Below are positions 4,344 to 6,256 of a stretch of DNA of 23,570 nt, piece after piece; position 1 is the stretch's first letter, and every line of letters begins with the position of its first letter. The stretch lies in the IMG/VR virus record IMGVR_UViG_2563366944_000005; one strand, 5' to 3'. Source of the stretch: a virus (lineage: Duplodnaviria > Heunggongvirae > Uroviricota > Caudoviricetes). The position numbers and the translations under genes are program-made. The notes below the pieces were generated by a model that was not told where the DNA came from, did no database searches, and saw nothing but the letters and a program-made list of their open reading frames with translations.

Positions 4344-4577
4344 ATGTCAACGAAGAACAGAACCCGCAGAACAACAACCCGCAACATCCGCTTTCCTAAC
4401 CAAATGATTGAACAAATTAACATCGCTCTTGTTCAAAAAGGGTCCGGGAATTTCTCAGCCTGGGTCATTGAAGCCTGCCGCCGGAGACTGTGCTCAGAAA
4501 AAAGAGTTTCTTCTGAAGCAAACAAAGAAAAGAGTGACATTACTGAATTGCTCAGAAAACAGGTCAGACCAGATTGA
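4344..4577 (+). CDS. ynfO: small basic protein, ynfO-like (77 aa)
   Basis: Track ORF; first gene after cos; length and position fit Qin ynfO as recalled; weak SD. Confidence 0.55.
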   Translation: MSTKNRTRRTTTRNIRFPNQMIEQINIALVQKGSGNFSAWVIEACRRRLCSEKRVSSEANKEKSDITELLRKQVRPD

Positions 4578-4634
4578 AGCAATTTAGATAATCGTGCAGA
4601 CTACGCCCCCTCATATCACATGGAAGGTTTATCT

Positions 4635-5045
4635 ATGGATCAGGTAGTCATTTTTAAACAAATATTTGATAAAGTTCGAAACGATTTAAACTATCAATGG
4701 TTTTATTCTGAGCTAAAACGTCACAATGTCTCACATTACATTTACTATTTAGCCACAGAGAATGTTCATATTGTATTAAAAAATGATAATACAGTGTTAT
4801 TAAAGGGCCTAAAAAACATTGTGTCTGTCAAATTTTCAAAGGATAGGCATCTTATAGAAACGACCTCTAATAAGCTGAAATCCAGAGAGATCACATTTCA
4901 GGAATACAGAAGAAACCTTGCTAAAGCAGGAGTTTTTCGGTGGGTTACAAATATCCACGAACAAAAAAGATATTACTATACCTTTGATAATTCATTACTA
5001 TTTACTGAAAGCATCCAGAAAACTACACAGATCTTACCACTCTAA
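4635..5045 (+). CDS. ydfO: DUF1398-family protein, ydfO-like (136 aa from the second ATG; track ORF begins at 4620)
   Basis: Track ORF 4620..5045; GGAAGG SD is placed 8 nt before the ATG at 4635. Confidence 0.7.
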
Positions 5046-5196
5046 ACCATAACGTCCGGCTTCTCTCACTCCTGAGCCGGACTGCATTGGTTTAATAAAA
5101 ACCATCAACAATTGTGATTTAGATATTCGGAACCATTCAAATATAACAAAACCCCGTAAAAACGAGGTTTATGGATAAATTTTATTATTGAATACA

Positions 5197-5373
5197 TCAG
5201 ATTAAATTAATCTTGACATCATAGCTTTCAAGACCCGTCATTTTTTCCCGTGCGGTAAACTGAATACTGGTAACTTCTTTCCCGGTCTTTTTCTTAAGTT
5301 CAATAATTTTTTTTGTTATATATTCAGAAATATCTGCTTCTGCTTTTGTTTTTAAGTTTTCAATATTCATCAT
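5197..5373 (-). CDS. gnsB: Gns-family small protein, gnsB-like (about 58 aa)
   Basis: Hand translation MMNIENLKTKAEADISEYITKKIIELKKKTGKEVTSIQFTAREKMTGLESYDVKINLI; not in track (under 60 aa); convergent with ydfO. Confidence 0.6.
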   Translation of the reverse strand: MMNIENLKTKAEADISEYITKKIIELKKKTGKEVTSIQFTAREKMTGLESYDVKINLI

Positions 5374-5541
5374 TTCCTCTTTTAGTCTGTTATGACTTTC
5401 CAGTTACACAGTAAGTCGATTATATGGTGCAAACGTGTAAAAGATAAGATGAAACATCGCAATAATCAACATACGATAGTCTAAATTTTACACAAACAGA
5501 CAAAGAGAATTTTCCTGAATTATCAATGCAATAGCATCAAA

Positions 5542-5772
5542 TCAACTCAAGAGCCTTATTGCTGCTTCCAGAATTTCTTCTGAAGTAACATGTCGATCCG
5601 CGGCTACATAAATGACTTTATGATCTCCGGTCAGAGATGGAAACCCTGCGGCCATTACAGTAAGGTGTGTTTTTTCGCCATTTGGATATTCACGCATGAT
5701 GGTGTTAACTCCAGTCATCGCTGGCACTACCACTGCTGGTTCAGAGTTAAAAAAAACTATGATTTTTTTCAT
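5542..5772 (-). CDS. hypothetical small protein (about 76 aa from MKKIIVFF...)
   Basis: Track ORF 5542..5814; the upstream start would lie inside the terminator hairpin, so the ATG at 5772 is preferred; weak SD; function unknown. Confidence 0.35.
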   Translation of the reverse strand: MKKIIVFFNSEPAVVVPAMTGVNTIMREYPNGEKTHLTVMAAGFPSLTGDHKVIYVAADRHVTSEEILEAAIRLLS

Positions 5773-5812
5773 GATGTTACCGTAGTATGTGAGTACCCAT
5801 CGAATAGACACC

Positions 5813-5840
5813 AAGCAAAAAAGCTCCCGAAGGAGCCTTC
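5813..5840 (-). terminator. rho-independent terminator downstream of cspI
   Basis: Hairpin GCTCC-cgaa-GGAGC followed on the minus strand by a T-run. Confidence 0.55.
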
Positions 5841-6043
5841 ATTTTCACTTTTTTAAATCCAACGACAGACGGCTGGCATTTAAGTATTGTGAAATATTAT
5901 CAAATGTAATCATCATTGATTTACAAAAGATACATTTTGCCCCGAAAGGATTCATGTCAGAAACATCAAAAGATGATGTTCTATACTGGGAACCATGACA
6001 ACACGGGCATCTAAAGTGAATATGGTTTGTAATATTGTCTACC

Positions 6044-6256
6044 TCAAAGCGCCACTACATGAACAGCGGCAGGACCTTTAGGTCCGTTCTCAATACCAAA
6101 TTCAACTTCCTGATTCTCAGTTAATGTTTTGAAATCGTTGCTCTGAATTGCTGAGAAATGGACAAACACATCTTTGCTGCCATCTTTCGGCGTGATGAAA
6201 CCAAAACCTTTTTCAGGGTTAAACCATTTCACTAAACCAGTCATTTTGTTAGACAT
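6044..6256 (-). CDS. cspI: cold shock protein CspA family (70 aa)
   Basis: Track [41 protein letters not shown]...; ATG verified; long AT-rich upstream leader typical of csp genes. Confidence 0.9.

Follow-up and report, generated by a model that had tools for sequence, protein, structure and literature searches.

What are the small genes that lie between the lysis genes and cos of a Qin-like lambdoid prophage, and whom do they serve? We addressed this question in a 23,570-nucleotide stretch of viral DNA (Caudoviricetes; IMG/VR virus record IMGVR_UViG_2563366944_000005; hereafter the window), whose open reading frames (ORFs) and similarity searches identify its content as a Qin-like lambdoid prophage of Escherichia coli that is apparently intact and has the late genes on the minus strand. 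A sequence-only reading of positions 4344–6256 had described a single cluster of five small genes and had proposed that they are accessory cargo rather than phage machinery. We conclude, with considerable confidence, that the slot instead consists of two independent modules: (A) ynfO-ydfO, on the plus strand, and (B) a cold-shock cassette, cspI-ynfQ-ynfR-ynfN-gnsB, on the minus strand, which constitutes a moron. The locus is the known Qin block of E. coli K-12, found here inside an apparently intact prophage; the central findings are already annotated and largely published, and the present analysis adds minor points only.

Gene content of the slot between Rz and cos

The slot measures ~2.47 kb from the stop codon of the Rz gene (6619) to cosN. 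Its right boundary is the Rz-type spanin gene rzpQ (DUF2514; 6619–7116, minus strand), assigned by PF10721 (E 7.7e-39) and by its RefSeq name. Its left boundary, cosN (4133–4144), has the sequence AGGTCGCCGCCC, the reverse complement of the lambda left end; this sequence is matched exactly once in the window, with 0 matches expected by chance, and its flanks match the lambda ends. With Nu1 ending at 3955, the placement of these genes between Rz and cos by the sequence-only reading was borne out. The same was true of its five ORFs, which lie where it had put them and belong to the families that it had named (ORF list, Pfam/NCBIfam and RefSeq names at a 99.8%-identical locus), and of their mixed orientation, with ynfO and ydfO on the plus strand and the others on the minus strand. 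Although the five genes that it named are all present, it had missed ynfQ and ynfR; the annotated genes in the slot number seven (ynfO, ydfO, gnsB, ynfN, ynfR, ynfQ and cspI), and the 76-aa ORF that it had listed as unknown is ynfN.

The whole slot is 99.8% nucleotide-identical to the chromosome of E. coli MSB1_4I. There and in K-12, RefSeq gives the gene order nohA, ynfO, ydfO, gnsB, ynfN, ynfR, ymcF/ynfQ, cspI, rzpQ. The cryptic Qin (Kim) prophage of K-12 agrees with it in gene content, gene order and orientation (nohA-ynfO-ydfO-gnsB-ynfN-ynfR-ynfQ-cspI-rzpQ), with 99.5% identity over the slot. It differs in two respects: the window prophage looks intact, with full terminase, portal and capsid genes to the left of the slot, and its ynfN encodes the full 76 aa, whereas the K-12 copy is frameshifted.

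Coverage patterns across 5426 complete E. coli genomes divided the slot into independent pieces: ynfO; ynfO plus ydfO; and cspI through gnsB. In place of a single cluster there are thus two modules, and the minus-strand genes have an operon-like structure that had gone unnoticed.

The cold-shock cassette and its control elements

The first gene of the cassette, cspI (6044–6256, minus strand), encodes a 70-aa RNA chaperone of the CspA family (PF00313, E 1.6e-31; RefSeq ‘cold shock protein CspI’). The protein is a single cold-shock domain (CSD) with the motifs KGFGFITP (RNP1) and DVFVHF (RNP2); its best NCBIfam matches are CspG and CspA, and it is identical to CspG at 55 of 70 positions. Ten nucleotides past the cspI stop, ynfQ (5845–6033, minus strand) begins at an ATT codon and encodes a 62-aa YmcF-like zinc ribbon (PF23641, E 1.7e-32, 62/62 positions) with two CxxC pairs (RCPCCH...KCIFCK); 41 of its 62 residues are identical to YmcF. 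Further downstream, ynfN (5542–5772, minus strand) encodes a protein whose predicted fold is an orphan, and a sequence search of the PDB returned chance-level matches only. The last gene, gnsB (5197–5373, minus strand), belongs to the GnsA/GnsB family (PF08178, E 3.3e-35, full-length match); counted from position 5370, its product is 57 aa long and is identical to GnsA at 37 of these (65%).

These four genes are under purifying selection, with ratios of nonsynonymous to synonymous substitution (dN/dS) of 0.04–0.08 against a Citrobacter-type variant of the cassette and 0–0.23 against mEp460 (cspI, 0–0.04; ynfQ, 0.08–0.23; gnsB, 0.07–0.18). The fifth, ynfR (5777–5842, minus strand; 21 aa), was taken from the RefSeq annotation, and its first codons lie inside the hairpin of an internal terminator. 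In mEp460 a stop codon interrupts this gene, and the Citrobacter-type cassette (locus L169) has no homologue of it. We therefore rejected ynfR as a conserved gene and regard it as lineage-specific; its translation may be a by-product of terminator read-through.

Upstream of cspI, the 5′ untranslated region (6257–6402, minus strand) is a cspA-type RNA thermosensor with a cold box. The Rfam model RF01766 matched positions 6017–6402 with 112.8 bits, against a gathering score of 78 (E 3.7e-29). The implied leader of 146 nt agrees with the published length of 145 nt, and cspI has been counted among the cold-induced csp genes (PMC6719143). The same element also precedes the csp gene in mEp460, in the Citrobacter-type cassette, in a Logan contig (L173) and in the chromosomal cspG locus. 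Guided by where the Rfam match ends on its 5′ side and by the sequence itself, we placed a putative cspI promoter at 6403–6445 (minus strand), with a −35 element TTGCTA (6431–6436), a 17-bp spacer, a −10 element GTTAAT (6408–6413) and an AT-rich region upstream. A candidate gnsB promoter, with a perfect −10 element TATAAT at 5419–5424, lies within the 168-nt AT-rich spacer between ynfN and gnsB. A consensus promoter scan returned 2 sites, compared with 8.2 expected from shuffled sequences, and neither was at a plausible position.

Two intrinsic terminators were found on the minus strand. One lies directly past the ynfQ stop (~5817–5840; GGCUCC-UUCG-GGAGC followed by U6; fold −14.5 kcal/mol), and the other lies past gnsB, at the end of the cassette (5139–5170; 9-bp stem with a T-rich tail; −13.1 kcal/mol, z −2.6). 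A terminator scan and folding of the slot gave no individual terminator past ynfO, cspI or ynfN. The claim that the genes have their own terminators thus held past ynfQ and gnsB and failed elsewhere, since the structure past ydfO, described below, is a hairpin lacking a U-run. The internal terminator is itself a recurrent feature: a hairpin and T-run stand directly past the zinc-ribbon stop in nearly all cassettes surveyed, with compensatory stem variants (GGCCCC/GGGGCC and GGTTCC/GGAGCC). The base composition of the region is also distinct, with 30–40% GC over 4700–6700 compared with 52–55% in the terminase genes and 44–50% in the lysis genes.

Distribution of the cassette

We compared the slot across relatives, as the sequence-only reading had suggested, using 80 IMG/VR loci whose YnfO is 97–99% identical to that of the window. 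The cassette was present in ~39 and absent from ~36 of them, about half, and the slot was otherwise empty or held other cargo. Carriers always had a Qin-type Rz, and loci without the cassette had a lambda-type Rz. In the latter, ydfO and Rz are separated by 323 bp (an empty slot), 507 bp or 1.2–2.9 kb, and the alternative late-strand cargo consists of KilA-N/ORF11CD3, Rha-family or T5orf172/MUG113 proteins or of insertion sequences. Another alternative occupant is a protein of 85–93 aa with a variable KA-repeat tail (IMG/VR loci L088–L167).

When loci were found through GnsB instead, all 80 showed the order Rz-cspI-ynfQ-ynfN-gnsB, followed either by ydfO-ynfO-Nu1 or by a lambda-type p78-ybcW. 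In other enterobacterial prophages, with a YnfN of 76% identity, genes for a CSD protein, a YmcF-like protein, YnfN and Gns follow holin, lysozyme and DUF2514 genes, and the packaging genes are of the GpA type or of the HNH + Terminase_4 + TerL type. Complete phage genome records also carry the cassette (PhiR42_1, 99.4%; mEp460_ev081, 93%), and it was found in 2095 of the 5426 E. coli genomes (~39%), nearly always in single copy. Among the matches listed from species-representative genomes, the order csp, ymcF-like, then ynfN, ymcE or neither, then gns held in 27/27 gns loci; these came from Escherichia, Shigella and Citrobacter, a genus range that is a lower bound. Because the cassette is present, absent or replaced among close relatives, and is found beside differing packaging modules, these sequence comparisons indicate that the slot is a hot spot for exchangeable cargo in which the cassette moves as a unit.

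The Rfam model of the small RNA STnc100 also matched near csp cassettes, in mEp460 (5444–5549) and in the Logan contig, next to icd (L173, 1661–1835).

Expression of the cassette in lysogens

Is the cassette expressed by the lysogen or only with the late genes? A published transcriptome of E. coli LF82, grown overnight in LB, covers the prophage Tritos, whose background has a median of 10.3 normalised reads (PMC9928086). Its CspI, YmcF-like, YnfN and GnsB proteins have the same RefSeq accessions as those of the MSB1_4I locus. In these data, cspI had 955 normalised reads, 93 times the prophage background; a 174-bp gene at the coordinates of gnsB (1610202–1610375) had 274 reads, 27 times background; and ynfN had 51 reads, 5 times background, so that gnsB RNA was 5 times as abundant as ynfN RNA (PMC9928086). 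The late genes were at background, with 8.0 reads for Rz, 6.1 for endolysin, 6.4 for holin and 8–14 for terminase (PMC9928086). In the Tritos sheet of the S1 table of that study, product labels are one row off the coordinates (LF82 1609133–1611261, compared with RefSeq); therefore, position and length identify the ‘YnfN, 27x’ of its Table 1 as gnsB.

Published work on K-12 bears on the same genes. A YnfR-SPA fusion was strongly cold-induced (PMC6001520), ynfQ has been listed as ‘Qin prophage, cold shock induced’ (PMC11228462), and cspI, ynfQ and ynfN were co-induced 5.8–6.5-fold by AZT with a common dependence on SspA (PMC11228462). The gene cspI has also been listed as a Rho-controlled cold gene.

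The LF82 data show textbook moron behaviour, with expression of the cassette in a lysogen whose flanking late genes are silent. Silence in the lysogen together with strict co-transcription with the late genes, which the sequence-only reading had opposed to its own proposal, is contradicted by these data for cspI, gnsB and ynfN; the ydfO homologue, in contrast, was at background. Its proposal of accessory cargo is accordingly well supported for cspI-ynfQ-ynfR-ynfN-gnsB, on the grounds of AT-richness, leader, terminators, presence and absence among relatives and LF82 expression, but it is not supported for ynfO-ydfO. The cassette shares with classical morons (bor and lom of lambda, and stx downstream of Q) autonomous expression, terminators, atypical GC content, variability and expression in the lysogen. 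It differs from them in that its cargo is a cold stress operon with an RNA thermosensor, rather than a virulence or exclusion factor.

These observations bear on the possibility that the cassette mainly serves the phage, with CspI and GnsB helping late expression, lysis or assembly when induction occurs in the cold. The cassette is co-oriented with both S-R-Rz and Nu1-A, and between Rz and cspI (6619 to 6402) the minus strand has no terminator. It is always found after the lysis genes, even where the packaging modules are of other kinds; it is carried by the two complete phage genomes named above; and a second csp gene, cspB, with the same type of leader, lies just downstream of Q and before the holin gene. 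However, roughly half of the prophages with a 97–99% identical YnfO do without the cassette, which is thus dispensable; its expression in the uninduced lysogen is strong, at a time when the late genes are silent; and it is kept in the defective Qin prophage of K-12 and in 39% of E. coli genomes. In addition, a phage-free copy, at the cspG locus, is conserved across Escherichia, which points to selection at the level of the host. We therefore consider a mainly phage-serving role unlikely and favour service to the lysogen.

The ynfO-ydfO pair

Module A begins with ynfO (4344–4577, plus strand), which encodes a 77-aa protein with a DUF3950 domain (PF13132, E 2e-20; NF041551, YlcI/YnfO; PHROG 949). 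Its scores exceed the family cut-offs in both cases (72.8 bits against 25 for PF13132 and 35.2 against 30 for NF041551). In the alignment, the N-terminal 50 aa are conserved with a ribbon-helix-helix (RHH)-like pattern, and the C-terminal tail is variable; a dN/dS of 0.28 indicates purifying selection. An AlphaFold2 model of the monomer, of low confidence (predicted local distance difference test, pLDDT, 68.8), has helices at 19–32 and from 34 onward after a disordered N-terminus. Its best Foldseek matches were ParD antitoxins, although these were non-significant (E ≥ 2, template-modelling (TM) score 0.42–0.52); a profile search against the PDB gave no match, and a PDB sequence search gave chance-level matches only. 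Thus, on the basis of pattern and model, the ynfO product may be a small RHH-like DNA binder.

The second gene, ydfO (4620–5045, plus strand; DUF1398, PF07166, E 1.7e-46), encodes 141 aa from its first ATG or 136 aa from the RefSeq start at 4635. Its product matched PDB entry 2HH8, the nuclear magnetic resonance structure of ‘hypothetical protein ydfO’, with an E value of 6.8e-90. The gene has ~84% nucleotide identity to the p78 gene of lambda/HK629 and a dN/dS of 0.19–0.21. At the 3′ end of ynfO, 46–61 nt upstream of the ydfO start, lies a palindrome resembling a PdhR box, AACAGGTCAGACCAGAT (4558–4574, plus strand). The sequence AACAGGTCAGACCAGAT is an exact match to a genomic-SELEX PdhR site that was assigned to ynfO>ydfO<gnsB (PMC7660256), and in the same study the DLP12 paralogue ybcV showed PdhR-dependent expression, a 10-fold activation (PMC7660256). 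Expression of ydfO may thus be driven by a PdhR-dependent promoter. Directly 3′ of the ydfO stop is a strong 9-bp hairpin without a U-run (5054–5082, plus strand; minimum free energy −17.9 kcal/mol, z −4.3; none of 200 shuffled sequences was equally stable). A C-G to T-A double change preserves its stem in one IMG/VR locus (L088). The structure is probably a 3′-end or stabiliser element, rather than a canonical terminator.

Homologues of ynfO and ydfO are present with ~89% nucleotide identity in lambda and HK629, and also in DLP12-type prophages. The segment occurs in 2656 of the E. coli genomes (at least 80% coverage), at up to 13 places per genome. Lambda and HK629 have the same slot from Rz to cos, and there too the DUF1398 gene (p78) and an unannotated YlcI homologue are antisense to late transcription. 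They differ from the window in that ybcW (p79, YbcW-like) lies between the DUF1398 and YlcI genes, and in that the lysogen-expressed bor stands beside Rz, where the window phage has the five-gene cold cassette. A bor homologue was not detected in Qin-type loci. That lambda and HK629 carry bor in this slot upholds the earlier suggestion that it is the position of lysogenic-conversion genes. Because the pair is conserved in lambda, HK629 and DLP12-type phages, it is not variable cargo; ynfO-ydfO is a conserved lambda-family pair antisense to the late operon. Neither is it host-like: ynfO and ydfO belong to phage families that lambda also carries (PHROGs 949 and 413), and ‘host-related’ does not describe them.

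Near-identical YlcI/YnfO proteins have been recorded from Staphylococcus aureus, from Bacillus, from a spider assembly and from many ~3.5-kb ENA contigs. Such out-of-host records most likely reflect contamination or spike-in with lambda DNA, rather than true hosts.

Could this conserved pair be part of the phage machinery, with YnfO as an RHH protein acting at cos or in late expression and the DUF1398 protein associated with the head? Its conservation beside cos in lambda, HK629, DLP12-type and Qin-type phages would fit such a role, as would the Shiga toxin (Stx)-type phage YYZ-2008, which has a different terminase and in which a DUF3950 gene lies anti-oriented between Rz and the HNH-terminase module that it adjoins. 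The RHH-like N-terminus and the ParD matches point the same way, although at E ≥ 2 and a pLDDT of 68.8 the structural evidence is non-significant. The YdfO family, PHROG 413, is labelled ‘head protein’, but we found no support for that label. Moreover, it would be unusual for structural or packaging genes to lie antisense to the late operon, as these two do; ynfO occurs in some phages that lack a DUF1398 gene; and activation of ybcV by PdhR, a host metabolic regulator, fits a gene expressed in the lysogen. A role in the phage machinery is accordingly improbable, and we retain the more general reading of module A as a conserved pair distinct from the cassette.

Toxin-antitoxin and defence annotations

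Database names raise a further possibility for the cassette, namely that ynfN and gnsB stabilise the prophage as a toxin-antitoxin (addiction) pair in which YnfN is the antitoxin. PF08178 is named ‘GnsA/GnsB toxin’ and RefSeq uses ‘addiction module toxin’; the two genes are small, adjacent and co-oriented, and the prophage also carries genuine hok/sok and relBE systems. However, the gene upstream of gns varies, being YnfN, the unrelated YmcE or none: in a Citrobacter locus (L189) no ORF of more than 31 aa was found in the 294 nt upstream of gns, and in K-12 a frameshifted ynfN stands beside an intact gnsB. Over-expression of gnsA or gnsB from a plasmid rescues growth and does not arrest it, the fivefold excess of gnsB RNA over ynfN RNA in LF82 is the opposite of the usual antitoxin excess, and there was no PADLOC match. 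With a partner that is variable or missing, we rejected the toxin-antitoxin pair, which is very unlikely, in favour of a role for gnsB in the cold cassette.

Anti-phage defence with a CSD effector, as in retron Se72 or CSD conflict systems, can be dismissed as highly improbable: moron slots often hold defence genes, and CspI matched the Se72 effector below threshold (50 bits, cutoff 82) and PADLOC CSD_V (E 3e-15), but the CSD fold common to these proteins accounts for the matches, the CspG, CspA and CspE models give CspI much higher scores, its gene has a cspA leader, no reverse transcriptase, noncoding RNA or partner gene is present, and PADLOC gave this generic match for CspI only and none for any other slot protein.

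The chromosomal cspG locus

The E. coli chromosome carries a paralogous cassette, cspH-cspG-ymcF-ymcE-gnsA, which has a leader of the same class and the same terminator past its zinc-ribbon gene. It differs from the prophage cassette in its middle gene, ymcE, which is unrelated to ynfR-ynfN; in having no flanking phage genes; and in being fixed across the Escherichia species sampled. The annotated ymcE ORF of K-12 begins upstream of the terminator that follows ymcF and runs through it, and the 5′ part of ymcE is doubtful.

The window prophage itself has a second AT-rich island, between Q and the holin gene (8300–9900), with ynfU (zinc-binding, PF23499), cspB and a divergent cspF. There, cspB has its own cspA thermoregulator (8912–9304, 158.8 bits), which brings the prophage total to three csp genes in two moron slots.

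Alignment showed that the K-12 cspG locus (1049000–1054500; local positions 1968–3242) is collinear with two separate segments of the prophage, window positions 5897–6260 and 9029–9652. The segment comprising cspF, the intergenic region, the cspB leader and the first ~115 nt of cspB is 75.9% identical to the cspG locus over 635 nt; cspI-ynfQ is 74.5% identical to it, and gnsB also matches. The cspG leader is 77% identical to that of cspB, compared with 45% to that of cspI. Within the cspG coding sequence, informative sites switch near nt 70 from cspB-like (10:5) to cspI-like (12:27), in a comparison of three sequences only. These alignments are suggestive of a fossil. Most simply, cspB and cspI, as direct repeats, would have recombined and thereby removed the lysis cassette, and the remainder of the prophage would have been lost afterwards. 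In this way the cspI-ynfQ-...-gns tail would have come under the cspF-cspB promoter and leader.

We tentatively combine this origin with a role for the conserved terminator. The cspG locus would be a fossil of a Qin-like prophage, and the terminator past the zinc-ribbon gene would be a Csp-responsive switch for the genes downstream, such that ynfN or ymcE, and gns, are expressed depending on the accumulation of the cassette’s own antiterminator protein. Taken jointly, the two proposals are possible but more doubtful than not.

Neighbouring features of the prophage

To the left of cosN, the minus strand carries terminase A (1510–3435) and Nu1/nohA (3410–3955). To the right of rzpQ, lysozyme (7113–7646), a DUF1327/YdfR gene (7643–7954) and holin (7959–8249) follow on the same strand; all were assigned from the ORF list and similarity searches. 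Two RNA genes expected for a Qin-type prophage were also found: the Sok antisense RNA of the hokD locus (16150–16321, minus strand; 104 bits) and the DicF small RNA (21773–21824, plus strand; 76.7 bits).

Discussion

How might the cassette serve a lysogen in the cold? Upon a temperature downshift, the leader would refold, and transcription and translation from the cspI promoter would rise and yield CspI and YnfQ, with CspI acting as an RNA chaperone and antiterminator. A fraction of transcripts would pass the terminator behind ynfQ into ynfR and ynfN, and antitermination by Csp-family proteins perhaps aids this read-through. The last gene, gnsB, would additionally be fed by its own promoter, which fits the fivefold excess of gnsB RNA over ynfN RNA in LF82, and GnsB would adjust the fluidity of membrane lipids. 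In fadR relA strains, a plasmid carrying gnsA or gnsB rescues the growth defects seen in the cold, and over-expression of gnsA restored the 16:1 and 18:1 fatty-acid fractions. Over-expression of either gene reportedly raises unsaturated fatty acids, a result that others attribute to Sugai (2001).

An RNA chaperone, a zinc-ribbon protein, a protein of orphan fold and a lipid modulator would thus jointly aid adaptation of the lysogen to cold. Such a benefit would explain why the cassette is retained in the defective Qin prophage and in ~39% of complete E. coli genomes, and likewise why the Escherichia chromosome has a fixed copy from promoter to gns, cspG-ymcF-ymcE-gnsA. In the lytic phase, the cassette would also be transcribed by Q-modified polymerase, within the late message.

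Several points weigh against a cold-adaptive moron standing beside an independent phage pair. A fitness benefit of the cassette to a cold lysogen was found neither here nor in the literature consulted on it. The effects ascribed to GnsB were seen upon over-expression. Co-regulation is the ground for proposing read-through of the internal terminator, and a generic sigma-70 scan found no site at either of the proposed promoters, that of cspI or that of gnsB. Since no minus-strand terminator separates it from Rz, the cassette also belongs to the late transcript and may benefit the phage. As for module A, the ydfO homologue was at background in LF82 (8.9 normalised reads, against the median of 10.3), and the YnfO model is of low confidence with non-significant ParD/RHH matches.

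The locus illustrates clearly how a moron can carry, as its cargo, a stress operon controlled by an RNA thermosensor. The side points, namely the fixed gene order, the movement of the cassette and the apparent phage origin of the cspG locus, are incremental; they may be relevant to the cold-shock regulon and to the domestication of prophages. If the proposal of a fossil prophage and a Csp-responsive switch is true, part of what is regarded as the ‘host’ cold-shock regulon would be domesticated phage cargo.

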